This document shows, piece by piece, positions 18,545 to 63,774 of a stretch of DNA of 64,000 nucleotides; within the stretch, counting starts at the first letter, position 1; each line of letters opens with the position of its first letter. This DNA comes from Candidatus Woesearchaeota archaeon. GTDB lineage: Archaea > Nanobdellota > Nanobdellia > Woesearchaeales > UBA10216. Position numbers and translations under genes: made by a program. The stretch spans positions 16,687 to 80,686 of the forward strand of contig JACPBS010000010.1 in NCBI GenBank assembly GCA_016180195.1. Reading direction: 5' to 3'. Under the pieces are notes generated by a model. It saw only the letters and a program-made list of their open reading frames with translations, searched no databases and was not told the origin of the DNA.

Positions 18545-19471
18545 TTACCTATTGCACTGGATATCAAACCTTGTGGGATTTGGAACAGCGGTCCTGAAAT
18601 AGTCGTATATTGTCCCATCAGAATGAAGATAGAAATAGTCGTATATTGTCCCATCAGAATGAAGATAGTATTGGGCATCTATGTATTGTGTTATTGAATT
18701 TGTACTAGGATCATAAAGTCCTATTTTTAGAATTGCTCCGTTTTTTCCTTCTAATCCAACTATCAATCTTCCCAAATCCCAGAAAGGCTTTGCAGTTTGG
18801 GAAGCATCCGTAGTTAAGCCTCCTTCACTCACCAAGTTCTTTCCTGCGGTTAATTCTCCTGCAAGTCGAGGTGTTTGTGGGTTTTGTATTCCGAAATCAA
18901 ATAATATAGTGGTGCTGTCTGTGAATAATGTAGATGGCGTAACCTTGACTACCCAGGCAGCAGCACTTGACGTTGTGATGTAATCATTAATGTTTCCTGT
19001 TGTGATGAAAACAGTTCCGTTCATTACCTTAACTTGGCCGTCAATTGCATCGGTGTATGTATCGCCGTAAACCATGATTGCTGTTGGGTTTGTTGAGTCG
19101 GCACAAACAAAGCTTGATTCAAGAAAAGCATAGTTCCTATTAGGAAGCGGTGTTGATGTAGGCGTCGCAGTAGCGGTTGGTGTATATGTTGGTATTGGTG
19201 TTGCTGTTGCGGTTCTTGTGCTTGTCGGGGTTGCTGTTGGGCTGGAATGCGGCGTTGGTGTGTCAAAATCCTTGCTTACAGAGGGGAGATATACTAAGAA
19301 CTGCTGTCCTGGCTTTTGAGTACTGTAACCCTTATTTGCGCTGTTGCTGTTCTGATAGGCCTCCACGCCTCCGTTTCCGGAAAGAGCAGCGATAACTGCA
19401 GCGGTAGCTAGGGTAGCTAAGGTAAGCCCTGCTCTCAGTTCAATTCGCCTTAATAAGTTGTCAAGCGTCAT
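18545..19471 (-). CDS. Secreted protein with a Thr/Pro-rich linker
   Basis: N-terminal anchor or signal, then a PTPTATPTSTRTATATP linker and a beta-rich domain. Contains an exact 12-aa tandem duplication (YLHSDGTIYDYF x2). Confidence 0.5.
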   Translation of the reverse strand: MTLDNLLRRIELRAGLTLATLATAAVIAALSGNGGVEAYQNSNSANKGYSTQKPGQQFLVYLPSVSKDFDTPTPHSSPTATPTSTRTATATPIPTYTPTATATPTSTPLPNRNYAFLESSFVCADSTNPTAIMVYGDTYTDAIDGQVKVMNGTVFITTGNINDYITTSSAAAWVVKVTPSTLFTDSTTILFDFGIQNPQTPRLAGELTAGKNLVSEGGLTTDASQTAKPFWDLGRLIVGLEGKNGAILKIGLYDPSTNSITQYIDAQYYLHSDGTIYDYFYLHSDGTIYDYFRTAVPNPTRFDIQCNR

Positions 19472-39853: not shown

Positions 39854-39865
39854 TTTTTTTTCCTC

Positions 39866-40066
39866 CTAGCATCCACCTACCATTGTAGGCAGCTCATTTA
39901 TGTTGTTTGTTGACTGTCCTGTGCCTGTATTCGTGGCAGCAGATCCCCCTATTTTTATTGAGCCCTCTTCGATCTTTGCTTTCAGGCTTGTAAGCTGGTA
40001 TGCTTGAACTGCCGAGGCTATTAGCAGGAAGCCCAATACTATGATCATGATAAGGTTTTTGTTCAT
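39866..40066 (-). CDS. Small secreted protein ending in ELPTMVGGC
   Basis: Signal peptide MNKNLIMIIVLGFLLIASAVQA. The C-terminal 8 residues are conserved with the upstream gene despite synonymous codon changes. Confidence 0.45.
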   Translation of the reverse strand: MNKNLIMIIVLGFLLIASAVQAYQLTSLKAKIEEGSIKIGGSAATNTGTGQSTNNINELPTMVGGC

Positions 40067-40076
40067 TTTTTTCCTC

Positions 40077-40784
40077 CTAGCATCCTCCAACCATTGTTGG
40101 CAGGTCTCCGATGTTTGACTTGTCGCCTGCTTTAATTTTTTTGAGCAGATCCTTGTCGTTAAGGACTGCGGGTGTTATCTCGATGCCGTTTTCCACTGCG
40201 GCAACGCCCTTCTCAACCATGTTCTTGGGGTAGTACAATGCTTTCCATCGTGTAAGCTCGGCGAGAACCTGCTCGTTTGTCCATTTGTCAGGCTCATTTT
40301 TCAGGAGGTATTTTGTGAGCCCCCTGAAAGATGCCGCGTGTGCGCATCCGCATGCATCCCTTCCGCTTGGGTCGACCACATATGGTGCGCCGCAGCAGAA
40401 CTCGCAGCTTATCCGGGTTGTAACGTTTATGTATCTTGTTTTTTCATCTGCACTTAGCTGGGAAGTGGGTATTTTTCTGTCAAGGTTTGCCAGGACATTT
40501 ATGCTTTGCTCAGGCGTGTCATAGCTGACTCCTATATCTTCTCCGTAGCTAGGCATTCCTTTGGGTATGATTGCCGCGATTACGTTCTGGACAACATCCC
40601 CGCCCTGCTTTACCTTGAACGACGTGTCTTTGCTGGAGCTTCCCGATCCGATGTTGAAGAATCCTGTTTTCTGCCCGCCAATGGCGGCTGATACTGATAG
40701 CACCTGCAGGCTGTTAAACACAACAAGCAGGGCCAGGATCGCTACTCCGATTAGTTCCCAGTTGTTCTTTATCCTGTCGCGCAT
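40077..40784 (-). CDS. Membrane-anchored protein with a Cys cluster (CEFCCG...CGC), ending in DLPTMVGGC
   Basis: N-terminal TM helix. C-terminal motif shared with the downstream paralogue. First gene of the operon. Confidence 0.5.
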   Translation of the reverse strand: MRDRIKNNWELIGVAILALLVVFNSLQVLSVSAAIGGQKTGFFNIGSGSSSKDTSFKVKQGGDVVQNVIAAIIPKGMPSYGEDIGVSYDTPEQSINVLANLDRKIPTSQLSADEKTRYINVTTRISCEFCCGAPYVVDPSGRDACGCAHAASFRGLTKYLLKNEPDKWTNEQVLAELTRWKALYYPKNMVEKGVAAVENGIEITPAVLNDKDLLKKIKAGDKSNIGDLPTMVGGC

Positions 40785-49576: not shown

Positions 49577-49903
49577 ATGATGGAATGTCTTCGGTGCCGG
49601 TGCGAAGATTCCGAAACCGCATCCATTTGTGAGAAAATTTTTATAACAATGGAAAAAATTATAGCCATGCTGCAGTGTTATTTGAAGGGGGCTTGCCATG
49701 GACTTTATGGCCCTGGAACAGTGGTTTACGCGAGGAGAAGTGATGGTGCCGTAGTTAAGGGAGAATTCTATACCATCGAAAGCGTTATGAACGATAATGG
49801 AAGCTGCGGGAAAACCCTTGAGCTGGCACTGAGGGAAGTGGAAGGTTCGTATTCCCGAAATACGTTCAGGGTCAATGAGGAATGCCTGTCAAGGATGGCT
49901 TAG
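49577..49903 (+). CDS. Hypothetical small Cys-containing protein
   Basis: ORF only. True start uncertain. Confidence 0.3.
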   Translation: MMECLRCRCEDSETASICEKIFITMEKIIAMLQCYLKGACHGLYGPGTVVYARRSDGAVVKGEFYTIESVMNDNGSCGKTLELALREVEGSYSRNTFRVNEECLSRMA

Positions 49904-49929
49904 GGTATGTGATCCCTTGGTTAAACAAA

Positions 49930-50175
49930 GGCGAATTGGGTTTTACAAGCAGAATACGTCTTCTAACAGTTCTTCTAATAGTGCCAACAACTGTTGGCGA
50001 TCCGGGGGATGCCCCATCCGGGGTGGCGAGAAGCTCCCAAATTGAGCAAAGCTCAATTGGGCCAAATCACGCTGAAAGCGTGATTTGGGTTTTTGCCAAA
50101 CCAAAAAAGCGTCCAACCATTGTTGTTGGCACAATCAAGGAAAACAGGCAACAATTTTTTACTCATGCTGCGGAG
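49930..50175. repeat. Structured repeat element A (candidate ncRNA or MITE), 54 nt upstream of the argS ATG
   Basis: Shares two near-identical blocks (about 70 nt and 60 nt) and the ACUCAUGCUGCGGA terminus with element B. Contains an 11-bp closing helix and an R1-like hairpin insert. Confidence 0.5.
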
Positions 50176-50227
50176 ATGCTGCTGGTATGCATAACCTTAA
50201 TAAACATCATTCCTGTTTCAATCTGCT

Positions 50228-51898
50228 ATGAATGTTTTTAGGGATGCAGTTGCAAAGCTCATTTCAGATGAGACAGGTATTCCAAGGGAAGAGGCTGAGC
50301 GGCACATTTCCATTCCCCCTTCTCAGGACCTTGGTGACTTTGCATTTCCTTGCTTTTCGCTTTCAAAGAAGTTAAGGATGGCTCCTGACAGGATTGCTGT
50401 TGATTTGAAGTCCAAGATCAGCCCAGGCAGGTTTTTTGAGAAGGTTGAGGCTCATGGCCCCTACCTTAATTTCTTCATGAACAGGGCATGGATGGCTGGG
50501 AAGGTTGTTGATGCAGTGATGGTTGAGGGTAAGGATTATGGGTCCTTGAAGTCCAAAGGCACTGTTTTGGTGGAGCACACGAGCATTAACCCGAATGCAA
50601 GCCCTCATGTGGGCAGGGCGAGGAACAGCATTATTGGGGATTCCATAGTCAGGCTTCTTAGGTTTCATGGCTACAAGGTTGATGCGCATTTTTTTGTCAA
50701 TGATATCGGGAAGCAGATCGCTCTTCTTGTGCTTGGATGCAGGGGCAGGAAGCTCGCTTTTAAGGATATGCTTTCAGAGTATATCAGGATTAATTCTGAG
50801 CTTGAGGCAGACCCGGGCATTGAAAGGGATGTTTTTGCCCTATTGAAAAAGCTTGAGGATGGTGATAAGGAAGTCCGGAAGGAGTTCAGGCAGGTTGTTG
50901 AAATGTGCGTTAAAGGGCAGTCAGGAATCCTTTATGAGCTAGGCATTAGGTTTGACTGCTTTGACTATGAGTCTGATTATCTTTTCAGCCGGAAGACTGG
51001 CGAGGTTCTAGGCAGGCTTGAATCCTCAGGGAAGGTGTTTGTTGATGCTGAAGGCAGGAAAGTTCTCAACCTTGAGGGATTTAATCTGGACATGAAATCG
51101 CCGGTTCTTGTTTTAACGCGGGCGGATGGGACTTCCCTTTATGGATTGAGGGATTTGGCTTATACTGTTGACAAGTTATCGAAGGGAAGGAACATAGTTG
51201 TGCTTGGGGAGGATCATAAGCTTTATTTCAGGCAGCTTTCTGCAGCGTTATCTCTCCTTGGCTTTCCTGCTCCTGAGGCTGTGCATTACTCGTTTGTCCT
51301 GCTGGCCAGCGGGAAGATGTCAACAAGGTCCGGGAACGTTGTTTTGCTTGAGGATTTTATGTCTCAGGCGTTGGAAAAGGCGGAAGCTGAGATAAGGGGG
51401 AGGAAGAAGGCCCGTTTTTCGAAGCAGCTTGCGCGCAGCATCGGGTATGGAGCATTAAAATATCACATAATAAAGGTCAGCCCTGAGAAAAATGTAACGT
51501 TTGACTGGGATCATGCCCTTAGCTTTGAAGGCGAGTCTGCTCCTTATATCCAGTATGCCCATGCAAGGATAGCCGGTATTATCAGTAAGGCAGGCCATTC
51601 AAAAAAGGGCAAGGTTGATTATTCTCTCCTTAAGACTTCTGTGGAGCATGAGCTGGTCAAGCTGCTTGCTGATTTCCCTGATGTGGCTGAGAAGGCTGCC
51701 CTACAGTTGAGGCCTCATCTTATTGCTAATTATGCGCAGTCCCTTGCAGACTGCTTCAACAGGTTCTATCATGAATGCCCGGTTATCAGCGATGATCATG
51801 ATCTAAGCACAGCCAGGCTTGTGCTTGTCTCTGCTGCCAGGCAGGTTCTCGAAACCAGCCTTAATCTTCTCGGGATCGAGGCTGTAAGGAAGATGTAG
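50228..51898 (+). CDS. argS: Arginyl-tRNA synthetase
   Basis: Class I core with the HVGRARNSIIGD HIGH-region. Arg-specific add-on N-terminal domain. C-terminal DALR anticodon-binding domain. Confidence 0.9.
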   Translation: MNVFRDAVAKLISDETGIPREEAERHISIPPSQDLGDFAFPCFSLSKKLRMAPDRIAVDLKSKISPGRFFEKVEAHGPYLNFFMNRAWMAGKVVDAVMVEGKDYGSLKSKGTVLVEHTSINPNASPHVGRARNSIIGDSIVRLLRFHGYKVDAHFFVNDIGKQIALLVLGCRGRKLAFKDMLSEYIRINSELEADPGIERDVFALLKKLEDGDKEVRKEFRQVVEMCVKGQSGILYELGIRFDCFDYESDYLFSRKTGEVLGRLESSGKVFVDAEGRKVLNLEGFNLDMKSPVLVLTRADGTSLYGLRDLAYTVDKLSKGRNIVVLGEDHKLYFRQLSAALSLLGFPAPEAVHYSFVLLASGKMSTRSGNVVLLEDFMSQALEKAEAEIRGRKKARFSKQLARSIGYGALKYHIIKVSPEKNVTFDWDHALSFEGESAPYIQYAHARIAGIISKAGHSKKGKVDYSLLKTSVEHELVKLLADFPDVAEKAALQLRPHLIANYAQSLADCFNRFYHECPVISDDHDLSTARLVLVSAARQVLETSLNLLGIEAVRKM

Positions 51899-51947: not shown

Positions 51948-54900
51948 ATGGAAGGGCTTGATTTTAAGACTACTGCTGATATCAAGGTTCCACAGAGGAT
52001 TGTGGACCAGGTGATTGGTCAGGAGGACGCTGTCAGGACTATTAGGAAGGCTGCAAAGCAACGGAGGCATGTTCTTCTCATAGGCAATCCTGGAACTGGC
52101 AAGTCAATGTTGGGGATGGCCCTTGCTGAGCTTCTTCCTAAGGAGAAGCTTGTTGATGTAATTTCCTTTTCAAACCCTAATGACGAGAACCAGCCTTTGA
52201 TCAGGACGGTTCCGGCTGGCCAGGGCAGGGAGCTCGTGACTAAGTCCAGGCTTGAGGCGACGAATGTCTTCAAGTACCAGAACGCAATTATGCTTGCTCT
52301 TCTCATAGTGACGATCATTTCGCCATGGTGGGCATTTAACCATTATACAAACGTTGGGGGTTATCTTCTTGGCGGTTTGATGTTCATCGCTTTTTTCCTT
52401 GGAGGGATGGTTTTTTTCGCGAGCTTCATCCTGTTCATTAATTTTGGCAGGAAGGCTGATAACAGGGGCAGGATTCCGAAGGTCATAGTTGATAATTTCA
52501 GCAAGAAGCAGGTTCCTTTTTTTGACGCAACCGGGGCTCATGCAGGTGCATTGCTTGGCGATGTATTGCATGATCCTTTCCAGTGTATCCCTGGCGACGA
52601 ACTTATTCATTTGCCTAATGGAAAGCCGGTTAAGATCAAGGATCTGGTTGATCCATTTTTAGATTCAGATGGCGAGAAGGAACTTCGTGATCAGGATCAA
52701 TTCGATGTGTTGTCCGGCATAAAATCTGGTTTCGGATTCACTTCTGCGAAAGTTTTTAGGGTTTTCAGAAGATTTTTTGATGATGAACTGATTGTTTTGG
52801 AGACTTCGAGGGGTTATAAGATCAGGGTTACTCCGAACCATCCTGTTGCCATTTATTCGCCTGCGGGCCATATTGACTTCATTCCTGCAGCCTCAATTTC
52901 AAGAAAAATGAGATGTGTTGTTCCAAACAGGATTCCTATCACGGCTAGTGAAAGGTTAAGCCCTTCTTTTATTAATTTCCTTGCAGAAACCTTGTCAGAT
53001 GGCTGCATAAGGGAGAGGTCTGTTGCTTTTAAAGTTAGAACAAAATGGAAGGCAGAGGCATATAAAGCCACGATCAAGGCTATTGGTCATGTTCCGAGAA
53101 TAATAAACAGGGGCGGCGATATTGAAATTTATTTAAATTCTGCAGAACTTGTAAGAACCCTTTTAAAAATGGGGGTAAAAAAGAATGGGAAAAAAGAACT
53201 TCCTGAAGTATTATTTGGCTTGCCAAAAGAGGGCGTATTTAGATTTTTGGCCCGTTACATCTCGATAGATGGATATGTGGGTAAGCAGGGTCAGTTTGAA
53301 ATAGTTTCCAAGGAGCTTATTCCAGATATTACTGCGCTCCTCCTTAAGATAGGTGTTAGGGCAAAAATAAGGCATAGGCCTGACCACGGGTTTGGGTTGG
53401 CAAAGGGCATAATTCAGCCACGAATTATCTTTTCAGATTTTGAGTTTGCAGGAGTTTATAGGGAGTTGACGATTAATCCAACTCATAAGGCAAACCTGGA
53501 TTCCTATTTGAGTTCGACCAGTTTCAGGCATGTTTCGAAAGATGATGTGATTCCTGTTGAATTTGGCTGGATGGAAAGGATCAGGCTAAAGGCCGGGCTT
53601 AGTAAGGGTAAAACTCATGATGCATATTATGCCTTAAACCCGGAAGTCCCAAGCCATTCGGCTCCAACACGGCGTTTGCTTCAAAAGGTTTTGGATAGGT
53701 TCCTTTCTTTTACCAACGATGAAGACCTTTTTAGGCTGCGTGATGTTGTGCAGGGCACTTTTGATTTTGATGAAATTGTTTCCGTCTCAAAGGAGAAATT
53801 CTTGGGGCATGTTTATAATCTAACCACCAGTACTGGTACTTATGTGGTTGCGCAGTTGCTCACCCATAATTCCGGCGGCCTTGGAACGCCTGCCCATGAG
53901 AGGGTTGTTGCTGGAATGATCCATAAGGCGCACATGGGTGTTCTTTTTATTGATGAGATAGCAACGCTTCAGCCTTCGACCCAGCAGGAGCTTTTGACTT
54001 CGCTGCAGGAAGGCAAGTATTCCATAACAGGTCAGAGTGAGAGGTCTGCTGGCGCCATGGTCAGGACTGAGTCAGTTCCGTGTAATTTCATTCTTGTTGC
54101 TGCCGGGAATATAGAGACAATCAGGCAGATGCACCCTGCATTAAGGTCAAGGGTTAGGGGTTATGGGTATGAGGTTTTTATGAAGGAGACCATGCCTGAT
54201 ACTGAGGAAAACAGGCTTAAGATCGCGAATTTTGTTGCTCAGGAGGTGTCCAAGGACAAGAAGATACCTCATTTCAGCAGGGATGCTGTGGATCAGATAA
54301 TAATTGCTGCCAGGAGGGCTGCTAACAGGAAGGGTCATTTGACGCTTCATCTTAGGGAGCTTGGAGGGCTTGTCCGTGCAGCAGGTGACCTGGCTACAGA
54401 GGAAAGTTCCAAGTTTGTTGAAAAGAAGCACGTCCTCAATGCGAAGAAGATGGCCAGAACCCTTGAGCAGCAGATCGCTGACAAGATAATTGAGCACAGG
54501 AAGGAGTATGAGGTCATTATTACCTCTGGCAAGAAAATTGGCAGGGTGAATGGGCTTGCGGTTCTTGGGGGCGGCACATCTTATTCAGGTCTTATCATGC
54601 CTATCGAGGCCGAGGTCACGCCTGGCGGGGAGGCTAAGGAAATTATTGCTACAGGCAAGCTGGGGGAGATTGCCAAAGAGGCTGTGTTGAATGTTTCTGC
54701 TATCATAAAGAAGTTTTTCGGAGAGGATATCAGGAAGACCCGTGATATCTATGTCCAGTTCCTCCAGACCTATGGGGAGGGTGTTGAGGGGGATTCTGCA
54801 AGCATCGCGGTGGCAACAGCAATAATCTCTGCATTGAAGGGCATCCCGGTAAAGCAGGATGTTGCGATGACTGGCAGCCTTTCTGTTCGCGGAGAGGTGC

Positions 54901-55118
54901 TTCCTGTTGGAGGGGTCTCATCAAAGGTTGAGGCTGCGCTTGAGGCGGGCATAATGAATGTGATTGTCCCGAGGACTAATCTCAAGGATATCATCATGGA
55001 CAAGTCGGATTACTCTAAAATAAGGATAATTCCCGTTGATAACATCGGTGAAGTTCTTTCAGAGGCCCTTGAGTGGAAGGGTAATGAGCACATCCTGAAG
55101 AAGATCTCTTATGCTTGA
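51948..55118 (+). CDS. lonB: Archaeal membrane-bound Lon protease (LonB) interrupted by an intein
   Basis: Walker A LLIGNPGTGKS. Two TM helices inserted in the AAA module. SGGLGTPAHERV and GVLFIDEI motifs. Ser-Lys protease domain (DSASIAVATAI...K). Confidence 0.9.
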   Translation: MEGLDFKTTADIKVPQRIVDQVIGQEDAVRTIRKAAKQRRHVLLIGNPGTGKSMLGMALAELLPKEKLVDVISFSNPNDENQPLIRTVPAGQGRELVTKSRLEATNVFKYQNAIMLALLIVTIISPWWAFNHYTNVGGYLLGGLMFIAFFLGGMVFFASFILFINFGRKADNRGRIPKVIVDNFSKKQVPFFDATGAHAGALLGDVLHDPFQCIPGDELIHLPNGKPVKIKDLVDPFLDSDGEKELRDQDQFDVLSGIKSGFGFTSAKVFRVFRRFFDDELIVLETSRGYKIRVTPNHPVAIYSPAGHIDFIPAASISRKMRCVVPNRIPITASERLSPSFINFLAETLSDGCIRERSVAFKVRTKWKAEAYKATIKAIGHVPRIINRGGDIEIYLNSAELVRTLLKMGVKKNGKKELPEVLFGLPKEGVFRFLARYISIDGYVGKQGQFEIVSKELIPDITALLLKIGVRAKIRHRPDHGFGLAKGIIQPRIIFSDFEFAGVYRELTINPTHKANLDSYLSSTSFRHVSKDDVIPVEFGWMERIRLKAGLSKGKTHDAYYALNPEVPSHSAPTRRLLQKVLDRFLSFTNDEDLFRLRDVVQGTFDFDEIVSVSKEKFLGHVYNLTTSTGTYVVAQLLTHNSGGLGTPAHERVVAGMIHKAHMGVLFIDEIATLQPSTQQELLTSLQEGKYSITGQSERSAGAMVRTESVPCNFILVAAGNIETIRQMHPALRSRVRGYGYEVFMKETMPDTEENRLKIANFVAQEVSKDKKIPHFSRDAVDQIIIAARRAANRKGHLTLHLRELGGLVRAAGDLATEESSKFVEKKHVLNAKKMARTLEQQIADKIIEHRKEYEVIITSGKKIGRVNGLAVLGGGTSYSGLIMPIEAEVTPGGEAKEIIATGKLGEIAKEAVLNVSAIIKKFFGEDIRKTRDIYVQFLQTYGEGVEGDSASIAVATAIISALKGIPVKQDVAMTGSLSVRGEVLPVGGVSSKVEAALEAGIMNVIVPRTNLKDIIMDKSDYSKIRIIPVDNIGEVLSEALEWKGNEHILKKISYA
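52584..53870 (+). mobile_element. Intein (about 429 aa) with a LAGLIDADG homing-endonuclease domain inside LonB
   Basis: Begins CIPGDELIHL. Two LAGLIDADG-like motifs (NFLAETLSDGCI, FLARYISIDGYVG). Ends VVAQLLTHN followed by Ser. Extein junction restores DPFQ|SGGLGTPAH. Confidence 0.8.
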
Positions 55119-57487: not shown

Positions 57488-58336
57488 ATGAATCTGGATG
57501 GGATAGTTTCAGCTTATGAAGTCAGGGATAGAGTTGCGAGGCTTGGTGAATGGCCTTTCCTGAAATGCCTGGCTTACGCTGCTGCAGTTGCGAATTCATT
57601 TTCTCCCTTACTTGTTAATGCTCTGTCAAATCAGGATTATGGGCAGGCCATGATTCAGGCTGCTGTAAATGGAGCAATATCTTTCCCTGCATCATATGTT
57701 TTTTCCCGAATGCTTGTAAGGTACCGGTGTGAATCCATGGTGGATGAGCTTACAGGCCTTCCCAATCTTAGGGCGCTGAAGCAGAGAATGCCAGAGGAAC
57801 TGAGCAGGGCATATAGGCAGCAGTCTCCTGTTTTTTTCCTGCAGATGGATCTTAAGGGGCTGAAATACGTAAATAATAATTTCGGGCTTGATGCCGGAAA
57901 TCAGCTGCTTCTGGAAGCTGTTTTGCGGATGAAGGAGCAGTTGAGGCCTTACGACTTTGTCGGAAGGTGCAGTACAACCGGGGGTTCTGATGAGTTCGTG
58001 GCAGTGCTTCCTTTGGGGTCCAATTACCCTAACAATGGCTTGTCTGGCTACGCATATTCTGTTTGCGAAAGAATAGTTGATTCAGGGAGTAGATCTCCTA
58101 TCGAATTCATGAATGGCAGGTTTTCTGAGAGGATTTCCCCCGAATTCAGGTGCGGAGCCCTCGTATACAGTCCGCCGGAGAAAAATGGGCATGCATTCGA
58201 TTCATGCGGGGAATCAGCAGAGATCCTTAAACAGCTAGGAATCCTGCTTGTAGACGTGAAGAGCCGCAACGAGATCATAGTTAGGGAATTTGGCAGAAAA
58301 GAAAATGTTCATAATTTTCCAACAGGAAAATTATGA
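57488..58336 (+). CDS. GGDEF-like domain protein (degenerate GGSDEF motif) with a hydrophobic N-terminus
   Basis: DELTGLPNLRAL, FLQMDLKGLKYVNNNFGLDAGNQLL and GRCSTTGGSDEFVAVLP are collinear with diguanylate cyclase domains. Confidence 0.65.
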   Translation: MNLDGIVSAYEVRDRVARLGEWPFLKCLAYAAAVANSFSPLLVNALSNQDYGQAMIQAAVNGAISFPASYVFSRMLVRYRCESMVDELTGLPNLRALKQRMPEELSRAYRQQSPVFFLQMDLKGLKYVNNNFGLDAGNQLLLEAVLRMKEQLRPYDFVGRCSTTGGSDEFVAVLPLGSNYPNNGLSGYAYSVCERIVDSGSRSPIEFMNGRFSERISPEFRCGALVYSPPEKNGHAFDSCGESAEILKQLGILLVDVKSRNEIIVREFGRKENVHNFPTGKL

Positions 58337-61599: not shown

Positions 61600-61870
61600 A
61601 CTATTCGCAGAATAGCCTCCTCCATAAGAGCAGCCCGGTCTAACAGTTGTTCTAATAGTGCCAACAACGGTTGGCGATCCGGGGGATGCCCCATCCGGGG
61701 TGGCGAGAGCTTTTTTCGCCCAGCAAAAAAGCGTCCAACCATTGTTATTGTTGGCACAATCAAGGAAAACAGGCAAAAATTTTCAGATAAATTTCGCCTT
61801 GGGTTCAAATCCCCACCCTTTAGGTCGAAGATTGCTCCGATCAGCGGATTTTTGTTACTCATGCTGCGGA
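61600..61870. repeat. Structured repeat element B (candidate ncRNA or MITE), 53 nt upstream of a DUF2156-like gene
   Basis: Same two conserved blocks and terminus as element A. Instead of the hairpin insert it carries a tRNA T-arm-like segment GGGUUCAAAUCCCC near its 3' end. Confidence 0.5.
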
Positions 61871-61922: not shown

Positions 61923-62843
61923 ATGGCATCAGCTTCTATGTTGGATTACGGTGTCAAAGTTATAGAACTGTCTGATAAGCCTTTTTTTGAGAGGGCTTAC
62001 AGTTCATTGAAGATGCCTCTCGCGGATCAGGACTTTTCTATGATTTACATCTGGGATAAGCTTATCAACATTAGATGGTTCCCTCTTAATGGTAATCTTT
62101 GTGCATTTGCTGATTTCGGAGGCAGTACTGTCCTGTGGGGCCCTGTTATTGGGGGTGGAAAGCTTAAGGAAACATTGAGTGCATGCTTCTCTTTGCTCGG
62201 AAAGGACGGAAGGCTTTGCTACCTGCCCGAGGAGCTTTATGATGAGTACAGCGAGCTTGAAGGCTTCAAGCTCGTCAGTCAAAGCCAGGAGTATATTTAT
62301 TCGGTGAAGGACCTTGTCGAGCTTAAGGGTGGCAGGTACGGCAAGAAAAGGAACCTAATAAACCATTTCCTTTCGAATTACCGCCCCATGGTCGAGGTTT
62401 TTGACTCGGAAAGGCATCGTAAGGGTTGCCTTGAGCTTTTGGATGTCTGGAAAAGGCAGAAGGCCGAGTCTTCATCAATAAATAAGAGCATAAGGTTCCA
62501 GTTCAATACCGAAGCGCGGCTGGCAAGGGAGACAGTCATTCTGGCAGACGAGCTGGGTCTTAAGGGGCTTGTAGTGGTTATAGATGGCAGGATCCAGGGA
62601 ATGACCTTTGGAAGCTTGCTTAATGCGGACACATGCAGCGTTATTGTTGAAAAGACCAATCTTATGTTTAAGGGTCTTCCTGAATTCATTTTTTCTGAAT
62701 TTCTGAAGAGATGCTGGGGTTCCTGTACATTTGTGAATGCGCAGGAGGATATGGGTGTCGAATATCTCAAGTCAGCCAAGATGAGCTATCATCCTGTGAG
62801 GCTGCTGAAAAGCTATATGGTGGTTAGGGATGAAGCTGATTGA
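61923..62843 (+). CDS. DUF2156 / MprF C-terminal-like protein (putative aminoacyl-tRNA-dependent transferase)
   Basis: KKRNLINHF motif and a C-terminal GNAT-like segment. Paralogue of the next gene. Confidence 0.45.
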   Translation: MASASMLDYGVKVIELSDKPFFERAYSSLKMPLADQDFSMIYIWDKLINIRWFPLNGNLCAFADFGGSTVLWGPVIGGGKLKETLSACFSLLGKDGRLCYLPEELYDEYSELEGFKLVSQSQEYIYSVKDLVELKGGRYGKKRNLINHFLSNYRPMVEVFDSERHRKGCLELLDVWKRQKAESSSINKSIRFQFNTEARLARETVILADELGLKGLVVVIDGRIQGMTFGSLLNADTCSVIVEKTNLMFKGLPEFIFSEFLKRCWGSCTFVNAQEDMGVEYLKSAKMSYHPVRLLKSYMVVRDEAD

Positions 62844-63774
62844 GGATGTGAAGGGCAATGAAAGCCTTATCACTGGCTGTATCAAGCGGCATGGCAGCTC
62901 TCCTGAACATAATTATTTTCATTACCTTGATCTTGAGGAGCCTTCCGGGAAGAATGTGTTCATAAGCTTTGGCAGCTGGAAGGGGCTTCTTGCCCAGTTT
63001 TTTCCCAGCATGAATGAATGGGTCGTTCTGGGTAATGTGCTGGCGCCGGAGAATGAAAGGCTTGATCTCCTTGTGGAGGCTGCGGGCAGGCTTTCAGCTA
63101 AGTTTGTGGTAGAATCTTCAGATGAGTTCAGGAGGGAAGCGGCGAAACGGGAAGGGGTGAGGGTTGCTGACCCGAGATTTGCGCTTTATTGGCCTGTGTT
63201 TGATTTTTCAGAATGGTCGGGTGACAGGATGGAGGGGGGTGTTTGGAAAAAGCTTAGGAACATCAGGAATCGTTTTGCCAGGATGAAAAAGTTCGAGATT
63301 GTTGATTCTGCTGATGTTCCAAGGGAGCAGCTCAATGCCCTGGTTATGGAGTGGGTTATGCGCAGGAAGCAGAAAGGCCTTGATATAAGCAGGCGTGGCA
63401 ATAATAAGGCGTTTTATCATAGATACCTCAACATGGTTGAAAGCGGATTCAAGGGTTTCGGGCATGCAAAGACTATGATTGTTGACGGAGAGCCCTGCAG
63501 TATAATGGCTGGCTGGGATATCCCGAATTCTGAGGGCGGCTATTATTCTTCTGTTGGCATTTACAGTTATAAGCATGAGGGGTTGGGTGAATTTGCCAAT
63601 ATGCACGATCTTTCGATGATCAAGGAATGTGGCTATCGTTTTGTAGATTTTGGAGGAAGCCCAAAGCCTTTGCTTGATTACAAGCTCAAGTTCAGGCCTA
63701 CTTCCATATACAAGACCTGCACGTTTGTGTTGCAAAGCCCGAATCCCTTGGTGATTGGTCCGATTCAGGTATAG
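62830..63774 (+). CDS. DUF2156 / MprF C-terminal-like protein, paralogue
   Basis: WKKLRNIRNRFARMKKFEIVD motif. Overlaps the upstream gene by 14 nt. Confidence 0.45.
   Translation: MKLIEDVKGNESLITGCIKRHGSSPEHNYFHYLDLEEPSGKNVFISFGSWKGLLAQFFPSMNEWVVLGNVLAPENERLDLLVEAAGRLSAKFVVESSDEFRREAAKREGVRVADPRFALYWPVFDFSEWSGDRMEGGVWKKLRNIRNRFARMKKFEIVDSADVPREQLNALVMEWVMRRKQKGLDISRRGNNKAFYHRYLNMVESGFKGFGHAKTMIVDGEPCSIMAGWDIPNSEGGYYSSVGIYSYKHEGLGEFANMHDLSMIKECGYRFVDFGGSPKPLLDYKLKFRPTSIYKTCTFVLQSPNPLVIGPIQV

Follow-up and report, generated by a model that had tools for sequence, protein, structure and literature searches.

Introduction

Comparative genomics has brought to light orphan structured small RNAs that combine an invariant core with covarying helices, are GC-rich within an AT-richer genome, occupy intergenic positions and belong to a single lineage. 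The same traits mark a repeat that we analyzed in a 64,000-nucleotide stretch from a Candidatus Woesearchaeota archaeon (GenBank assembly GCA_016180195.1, contig JACPBS010000010.1, positions 16,687 to 80,686 of the forward strand; hereafter the window). One copy, element A, precedes the arginyl-tRNA synthetase (ArgRS) gene argS, and two others are termed element B and R1. The family to which they belong departs from such orphan RNAs in being outside Rfam 15, in comprising several paralogue types per genome and in placing some of them head to head.

Other described systems resemble this family in part. Scaffold RNAs of ribonucleoproteins (RNPs), such as bacterial 4.5S/signal recognition particle (SRP) RNA with its helix 8 and Y RNA, also join their ends in a long helix and carry a short, near-invariant bulged hairpin in an otherwise variable molecule. 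By that analogy the bulged hairpin of the arm called P2 below looks like a protein-binding site, whereas the family lacks an SRP helix-8 motif, a GNAR loop, an Rfam hit to SRP or Y RNA and a linked Ro or SRP gene, and folds into a three-way junction. The 5S rRNA, at about 120 nt, is a three-way junction closed by a terminal helix, with several co-evolving copies per genome and tandem G·A pairs in one arm; the arms of the present family are much shorter, and the loop C and loop E sequences are missing. Archaeal miniature inverted-repeat transposable elements (MITEs) are short, non-coding, bounded by inverted repeats, multicopy and prone to break assemblies, as the present elements are, but in the present family it is the inverted repeat that varies, the interior being preserved in many species with compensatory changes, copy number appears low and target-site duplications are not visible. 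The genes of archaeal C/D box sRNAs, as in Pyrobaculum and Sulfolobus, are small, relocate often, frequently lack recognizable promoters and have flanking complementary ends. The likeness to these genes is limited to genomic behavior, as no copy of the present family combines a C box with a D box and k-turn geometry is missing.

We report that A, B and R1 are copies of a small structured RNA family of about 90-180 nt in uncultured Woesearchaeota and Nanoarchaeota (DPANN archaea). The family is described neither in Rfam 15 nor in the searched literature: literature searches by topic and by sequence returned no description of the element, and its invariant 22-mer occurs in none of the searched papers. 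The original prediction, made from the window alone, had proposed either a new non-coding RNA family or a MITE associated with translation-related genes, and the first of these proposals is borne out by the spread of the family, its fold, its covariation and the null result with Rfam. We document here the membership of the family, its fold, its strand, its spread across genomes and its lack of synteny.

Elements A and B

As a repeat, element A extends over 49962-50174 and element B over 61639-61870, both on the + strand and both delimited by the blocks that they share. These blocks, of about 70 and 60 nt, had been recognized from the outset. The first (A 49962-50031, B 61639-61708) is 97% identical and the second (A 50090-50158, B 61712-61783) 85-95% identical with a 3-nt indel, such matches being expected zero times in dinucleotide shuffles. 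Overall, A and B are 95-97% identical across about 215 nt, flanks outside the fold included. Both end, as had been noticed, in the 14-mer ACTCATGCTGCGGA (50161-50174 in A, 61857-61870 in B), which by itself counts for little, since 7 of 100 shuffles yield at least two matches when two mismatches are allowed. From this end to the next start codon we counted 53 nt for A and 52 nt for B, instead of the 54 and 53 nt first given; likewise, the left edge proposed for A at 49930 falls outside the repeat.

The RNA core of A, delineated by its predicted fold and by comparison with 40+ homologues, occupies 49981-50132 (+) and scores 50.2 and 56.6 bits with covariance models. It comprises the 5' strand of the terminal helix P1 (49981-49991), a GUUGG motif (49993-49997), the P2 arm (49998-50030), the P3 region with an insertion (50031-50109), a CGUC string (50110-50113), a CCAAC motif (50113-50117) and the 3' strand of P1 (50122-50132). 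The closing helix GUGCCAACAAC/GUUGUUGGCAC (49981-49991 with 50122-50132) has the 11 bp originally described, and its counterpart in B consists of 10 bp and a C·A mismatch. Within the P2 arm lies the invariant 22-mer CCGGGGGATGCCCCATCCGGGG (50002-50023), in a register consistent with the variation among paralogues. On the 5' side, a flank common with B (TCTAACAGTTCTTCTAATA, 49962-49980, +, repeat family D2) contains the TATA-like TTCTAATA, a putative promoter at most; on the 3' side, a tail also common with B (50133-50174, +) starts with AAUCAAGGAAAACAGGCAA and carries a T6 run (50155-50160) ahead of ACTCATGCTGCGGA. The predicted fold of A reaches -86.8 kcal/mol, with z = -5.2 against shuffles; the corresponding z is -3.6 for R1 and only -1.8 for B with its flank included.

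Element B, from its left end to its T-run (61639-61783, +), scores 51.2 and 59.0 bits. It is made of the shared 5' flank (61639-61657), the RNA core (61658-61757) with the 22-mer (61679-61700), the P3 hairpin (61709-61732) and the P1 3' strand (61748-61757), followed by the T-run (61780-61783). The last part of B (61784-61870, +) adds a B-specific 73-nt insert (61784-61856) before the shared ACTCATGCTGCGGA. This private insert includes a tRNA T-arm-like GGGTTCAAATCCCC at 61801-61814 and CTTTAGGTCGAA at 61818-61829, and may be what is left of another family member or an attachment site. ARAGORN found no tRNA in it, and neither tRNA nor transfer-messenger RNA genes in the window. Elsewhere, CTTTAGGTCGAA was seen only at the 5' end of copies of an AU-rich subfamily (L002, L006, L021 and L051; L numbers designate the loci compared).

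Distribution of the family

The invariant 22-mer of A and B, CCGGGGGAUGCCCCAUCCGGGG, was searched in one genome per species, plus a metagenome collection, viral contigs, plasmids and phages. The one-genome-per-species scan gave 25 loci, 24 of which come from 19 Woesearchaeota/Nanoarchaeota metagenome-assembled genomes (MAGs), at 1-2 per assembly; the lone bacterial match shows nothing of the architecture around the 22-mer and reaches only 23.5 bits. Metagenome contigs add 30 loci (55 scan loci in all), and the viral contigs, plasmids and phages gave zero matches. Some records bear 'Methanosarcinales' in their titles: two of them, L013 and L011, hold the same loci as the Woesearchaeota MAGs L003 and L018, and this label is doubtful for at least these two assemblies. 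Copy number appears low in the sequences covered, with 1-4 copies per genome sampled and three in the 64-kb window.

Fold, covariation and strand

The fold is a three-way junction of P1, the P2 arm and P3, and the same frame surrounds the 22-mer in every archaeal locus. P1 is a long terminal helix joining the 5' and 3' ends, wholly different in sequence between lineages, which in most copies reaches 12-24 bp beyond the core with unrelated sequences. The P2 arm abuts P1 without a linker and starts with 3-5 covarying pairs (e.g., CCGA/UCGG, CGAC/GUCG, CUGA/UCAG, CGAG/CUCG or AUCGC/GCGAU, and in some lineages CGAG/CGAG with tandem G·A pairs). Next in the arm come two C-G pairs. The 22-mer is read as these two closing pairs, a 7-nt 5' bulge GGGGGAU and a hairpin GCCCC-AUCC-GGGG(U). 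A linker of 1-2 nt (UA or A) leads to P3, a variable hairpin that often contains an internal GA/GA motif and tolerates insertions, and a single G (or GU) connects P3 to P1, giving the conserved string CGUC. The junction strands measure 0, 2 and 1 nt, and the loops of P2 and P3 3-11 nt. This architecture, namely P1, P2 (closing pairs, G-rich 5' bulge, GC hairpin), UA/A, P3, G(U) and P1' with CGUC past P3, was found in both A (50-57 bits) and B (51-59 bits).

As MAFFT applied to full-length elements could not align P1 and P3 structurally, only the core was modelled, and P1 was measured per sequence. The covariance model (69 positions, 17 seeds) yielded 66 hits in the fetched loci and, in the window, only A and B. 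Among 47 distinct sequences, 89.2% of cells form a standard pair, and in 16 of the 19 modelled pairs both sides change (157 cells). The observed covariation score of 0.405 was reached by none of 500 shuffles; shuffled data gave 0.104 and slid partners at most 0.055. The claim that selection acts on RNA structure, first drawn from two sequences, is thereby upheld on a far wider sample. Pairs of the G·U type outnumber A·C by 69 to 7 (29 to 7 after removal of an invariant G·U), which designates the + strand of A and B as the functional strand. Mean GC content is 65% in the cores and 45.5% in the host loci. A protein-coding nature was rejected: core lengths modulo 3 are spread over all three classes (21, 12 and 10), so no reading frame is conserved. 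Independently of this, the GC-rich elements give rise to spurious open reading frames (ORFs), as at 49882-50241 in the window and 12479-12793 in L061, one of which is a called gene in a public record.

Variant copies and head-to-head pairs

The models also retrieve copies without the exact 22-mer, and these preserve its structure through concerted changes. In the variants the closing pairs CC/GG covary to GC/GC, GG/CC or CUG/CAG, and the hairpin GCCCC/GGGGU to GGCCC/GGGCU, UCCC/GGGA or CUCC/GGAG. The G-rich 5' bulge is kept (GGGGGAU, GGGGGAA, GGGGGAC, GGGGAC, GGGGGUU or GAGGGUU) and the P2 loop varies (AUCC, AUUC, UCC, UUC, UGC or UAC). In silico, the canonical P2 arm has three near-isoenergetic registers (-18.9, -18.7 and -17.4 kcal/mol). 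The 22-mer of L061 carries two substitutions, which in the 5'-bulge register fall in the bulge and in the loop, and we took this register as the fold because it is the sole one compatible with all observed changes. Two isoenergetic alternatives were discarded: a loop-to-bulge pairing of GGAU with AUCC is broken by the U-to-A and C-to-U changes of L061, and a GGGG:CCCC hairpin does not find the needed complement in the variant bulge of the same locus. That the P2 arm might act as a conformational switch is a speculation suggested by the modelled energies.

Head-to-head pairs, made of a canonical and a variant copy or of two variant types, occur in four lineages, L004 (2319-2475), L020 (5555-5714), L045 (542-702) and L061 (12637-12781), with a fifth case in L064 (2831-2985). 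In each pair 11-30 nt separate the cores, and one stretch of DNA supplies both P1 5' strands, read from opposite strands.

R1 and the double-hairpin insertion

R1 (1113-1227, +) is a third, diverged copy, paralogous to A and B. Its parts are P1 (GUGCG/CGCAC), a P2 arm (CUGGGG/CCCCAG) with the bulge AGGGUUG and a hairpin UUCC..GGAA, and P3 (1201-1220), the P2 hairpin being split by a 51-nt insertion of two hairpins, hp1-hp2 (1134-1184). The minus strand of L064 (2826-2900) carries the same RNA without the insertion (32.3 bits), which reads GGUGCG-CUGGGGG-AGGGUUG-UUCC-UUCG-GGAA-A-CCCCCAG-A-[P3]-GU-CGCACC-AUUAAGAAAAGAA. R1 equals this RNA, purine-rich tail included, with the extra 51 nt between UUCC and UUCGGAAA. 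A second, broader covariance model gives a weak match to R1 at 1113-1226, that is, at its own ends (9.5 bits, E = 4.5). R1 belongs to the family, its architecture being found via the uninterrupted homologue of L064 and its own score being only 9.5 bits.

Element A contains a homologous 55-nt double-hairpin insertion (50035-50089, +; hp1 50036-50061, hp2 50062-50088), absent from B as well as from the L064 homologue. The two insertion sites are non-homologous, namely the 5' strand of P3 in A and the apical loop of P2 in R1. The module was found in no locus of another organism, the only other matches (L056 and L057) being re-assemblies of the same argS locus. The original prediction held that two hairpins recur between A and R1 with compensatory substitutions: the first hairpin does recur (R1 1133-1166, 85% identity, repeat family D9), and the evidence for compensation amounts, between the second hairpins of these two sequences only, to one A-U to U-A swap and one-base-pair indel. 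No canonical 3-4-3 bulge-helix-bulge motif of archaeal introns could be drawn by eye at 1134/1184 or 50035/50089.

Genomic context and turnover

BLASTP clustering of 153 flanking ORFs revealed no protein family recurring across lineages. The sampled neighbors include ProRS, a response regulator, L7Ae, lipoyl synthase, cytidylate kinase, Sua5, two integrase-family proteins and an IS66 transposase. The RNA shares its strand with the upstream gene in 22 cases and lies opposite to it in 18; relative to the downstream gene it does so in 25 and 14 cases, respectively. Several copies have both neighbors on the opposite strand and would thus need their own promoter. None of the 55 scan loci has an argS, aIF1A or DUF2156 homologue, which, together with the diverse neighbors and mixed orientation, leaves the proposed association with translation-related genes unsupported. 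A head-to-head family pair was found about 350 nt upstream of argS in L064, whose ArgRS is 71% identical.

Relatives keep the gene order around argS and aIF1A, and the elements are missing there: neither A nor B nor R1 occupies the orthologous positions in L058-L060 and L062-L064. In L062, L063 and L064 argS is preceded by a spacer of only 31-120 nt; the arginase gene of L063 runs directly into DUF2156, with the TATA-like box of the latter conserved (TTTATTAA); and in L058-L060 aIF1A retains a TATA-like box (e.g., ACATTTAAATAG in L059) without R1. A small ORF ahead of argS is kept between the window and L064 (35% identity, E = 9e-12), with the RNAs placed on different sides of it. Contigs from short reads that carry this ArgRS begin exactly past the 70-nt repeat block. 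The elements are thus subject to gain, loss and relocation within short evolutionary times, and the proximity of A to argS is incidental.

The TATA-like boxes that had been noticed in the spacers of A and B are present and lie between the elements and the downstream starts. This position puts each element upstream of the promoter of the next gene, which argues against a 5' leader and, with it, against a regulation of argS. A cis-regulatory leader of the riboswitch or T-box-like kind was accordingly rejected, in view also of the orientation counts and diverse neighbors.

As a separate observation, the RNA is preceded, at about 480 nt, by phage-integrase-family genes in L035 and L050, and the IS66 transposase gene adjoins L055, which hints that the RNA genes are located in, or are targets of, mobile regions.

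Comparison with known RNA classes

Rfam 15 covers SRP RNA, RNase P RNA, 5S rRNA, riboswitches, known ribozymes and HgcC-type archaeal sRNAs. Run over the entire window, it returned 0 hits at gathering thresholds. At E ≤ 10, A and B returned chance hits only (best 18 bits against a threshold of 60), and at E ≤ 1 ten further loci had nothing on the element. The statement that the family matches no recognized RNA therefore stands for A, B and ten other members.

Individual classes were rejected on more specific grounds. A tRNA or tRNA-like identity is at odds with the three helices and the absence of an ARAGORN tRNA. A substitute for 5S rRNA is contradicted by the lack of an RF00001 hit at E ≤ 10 and by standard 5S rRNA in nearly all complete Nanobdellota genomes, where it was detected in 203-205 of 208 (bioRxiv 10.64898/2026.05.13.725050). 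Box C/D sRNAs were dismissed because a C box (RUGAUGA) and a D box (CUGA) occur in the correct order in 0 of 43 copies. The box H/ACA class fits neither the three-way junction, which has no pocket hairpin, nor the occurrence of ACA, which only 22 of 43 copies have within their 3'-terminal 30 nt. The hammerhead core (CUGANGA + GAAA) is likewise in 0 of 43 copies, with no more than 0, 2 and 1 nt in the junction strands. In P2, P1 and P3 the tandem G·A pairs are not accompanied by the 3-nt bulge of a k-turn and, in many members, give way to Watson-Crick pairs.

Other features of the window

The window is archaeal and codes for an intein-bearing LonB, for aIF1A and for a protein of diphthamide synthesis; the proteins closest to its aIF1A and ArgRS bear the name Candidatus Woesearchaeota, and one ArgRS, from a 102-kb NCBI contig, is 100% identical. 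The organism is also represented in the samples of SRR12113385 and SRR12113422. LonB (51948-55118) is 1056 amino acids long and its intein carries a LAGLIDADG domain; its orthologues have 627-643 amino acids and no intein in L062 and L063, and 1066 amino acids with an intein in L064. A GGDEF-domain protein of the diguanylate-cyclase type, unusual in an archaeon, is encoded at 57488-58336 (Pfam tag from the identical gene in L056) and is kept in L063. Downstream of B, two adjoining LPG_synthase_C genes (DUF2156, aminoacyl-tRNA-dependent transferase; 61923-62843 and 62830-63774) are preceded by an agmatinase/arginase gene and an NNMT-like methyltransferase gene, the latter missing in L063.

Two further repeats were seen. 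A 50-nt repeat (39855-39904 and 40066-40115, 84% identity) comprises, on the minus strand, the apparent 5' untranslated region, a GGAGG motif and the start codon of two neighboring genes, and the palindrome in each copy (CCTACAATGGTAGG or CCAACAATGGTTGG) may be an operator. A perfect 36-nt tandem duplication (18596-18667) lies within a minus-strand ORF (18545-19471).

Discussion

We lean towards a stable small RNA that would act in trans, with its functional site in the G-bulged P2 arm, and whose genes would form a low-copy, often relocating family. In this scheme a stable RNA would be made from the + strand and act in trans, P1 would clamp and protect its ends, the G-bulged P2 arm would most likely be where a conserved protein or RNA partner binds, and P3 would be a peripheral part that accepts insertions. 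Elements A and B would represent a recent duplication of one RNA gene plus its flanks, within a family whose genes may be gained, lost and moved often. Independent transcription, action in trans and protein binding are what we infer from the conservation pattern and from the analogy with RNP scaffold RNAs. Appreciably less probable, in our judgment, is the view that the family is the RNA subunit of an unrecognized RNP, or a catalytic or switching RNA, specific to Woesearchaeales/Nanoarchaeota, with two or three ancient paralogue types, some in overlapping divergent pairs, and the nearly invariant G-bulged hairpin as active or recognition site.

Several observations weigh against a trans-acting RNA gene. 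The strand, ends and abundance of the RNA are predictions from sequence. A simple scan found no enrichment of TATA-like motifs 18-36 nt upstream of P1 and no enrichment of sense-strand T-runs after P1, in a test that was uninformative, its antisense control being contaminated by the promoters of downstream genes. The sole TATA-like box common to A and B (TTCTAATA) abuts P1 and would put the start site inside the element, and head-to-head pairs leave no space for canonical promoters. No conserved neighbor points to a partner protein. Finally, the frequent relocation, the 97%-identical copies with their flanks and the shared insertion module would also fit a selfish element.

Such a selfish, non-autonomous mobile element (MITE-like, or resembling short interspersed or repetitive extragenic palindromic elements), moving between intergenic sites with a fold that serves its own propagation or the stability of its transcript, is the main rival, although we regard it as unlikely. 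It would account for the near identity of A and B beyond the fold, for short-read assemblies that break exactly at the repeat, for the empty orthologous sites in relatives, for the 51-55-nt double-hairpin module at different positions in A and R1, for the integrase-family and transposase genes beside three loci and for the 5' edge of P1 as the exact point where L036 departs from L031 and L040. Yet copies appear few, and the P1 inverted repeat is unconserved between genomes while the interior is conserved, the opposite of what an element recognized by a transposase would show. No target-site duplication was found in the flanks of A and B, which differ beyond the shared block (the relatives being too diverged for base-level insertion boundaries), and the duplicated unit exceeds the one bounded by the inverted repeat. 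A 22-mer identical in 19 assemblies, surrounded by compensatory change, indicates long-term purifying selection, and viral, plasmid and phage collections hold no match. With copies far beyond this contig and no insertion sequence linked in most loci, a classical MITE, the second option of the original prediction, was rejected. The outer repeat is also a difficulty for a DNA-level site (an origin element, a site of recombination or attachment, or single-stranded DNA folded like an integron attC): it forms an inverted repeat without a conserved recognition sequence. Inverted head-to-head pairs, integrase genes near two loci and the tRNA-fragment-like sequence beside B would suit such a site, but the strand-asymmetric G·U pairs (69 vs 7) and tandem G·A pairs are a signature of RNA, or at least of one folded strand, arrays are missing, and most loci have no integrase linked to them; we consider this reading very improbable.

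Less likely than a selfish element is an RNA acting in cis and co-transcribed with a neighbor, either as 5' leader or riboswitch of the downstream gene (here argS) or as 3' terminator, insulator or mRNA stabilizer of the upstream gene. The 3/3 window copies co-oriented with both neighbors and located 60-95 nt past the upstream gene, the many copies that begin with an A-run and end with a U-run, resembling a bidirectional terminator, the lack of a clear promoter of their own and the family members near argS in L064 all speak for it; orientation to either neighbor is nevertheless near random in the family, downstream genes are functionally unrelated, the elements lie upstream of the TATA-like boxes, which for DUF2156 and aIF1A are kept in relatives without the element, three relatives have argS with no element in front, and a plain terminator needs no invariant 22-mer. 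We give slightly less credit still to a new class of self-cleaving ribozyme. Self-cleaving ribozymes conserve a core in bulges and junctions, vary in their peripheral stems and occur in scattered genomic contexts, also as tandem or inverted pairs. The compact junction fold with its invariant internal bulge and conserved CGUC, the varying contexts and orientations, and the head-to-head pairs, which without promoter space would suit processing from longer transcripts, recall this pattern, while the family matches no known ribozyme even at E ≤ 10, has no hammerhead core and leaves only 0, 2 and 1 nt in its junction strands.

The trans-acting small RNA that we favor would matter for organisms of which little is known at the bench: DPANN archaea represent a large share of archaeal diversity, their genomes are tiny and hardly any experimental work exists on them. 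The family is robust, well delimited and easily modelled, and in practice its elements break short-read assemblies and create spurious ORF calls. A small RNA with a 22-nt invariant module across many DPANN species likely has an important role that current annotation misses entirely.

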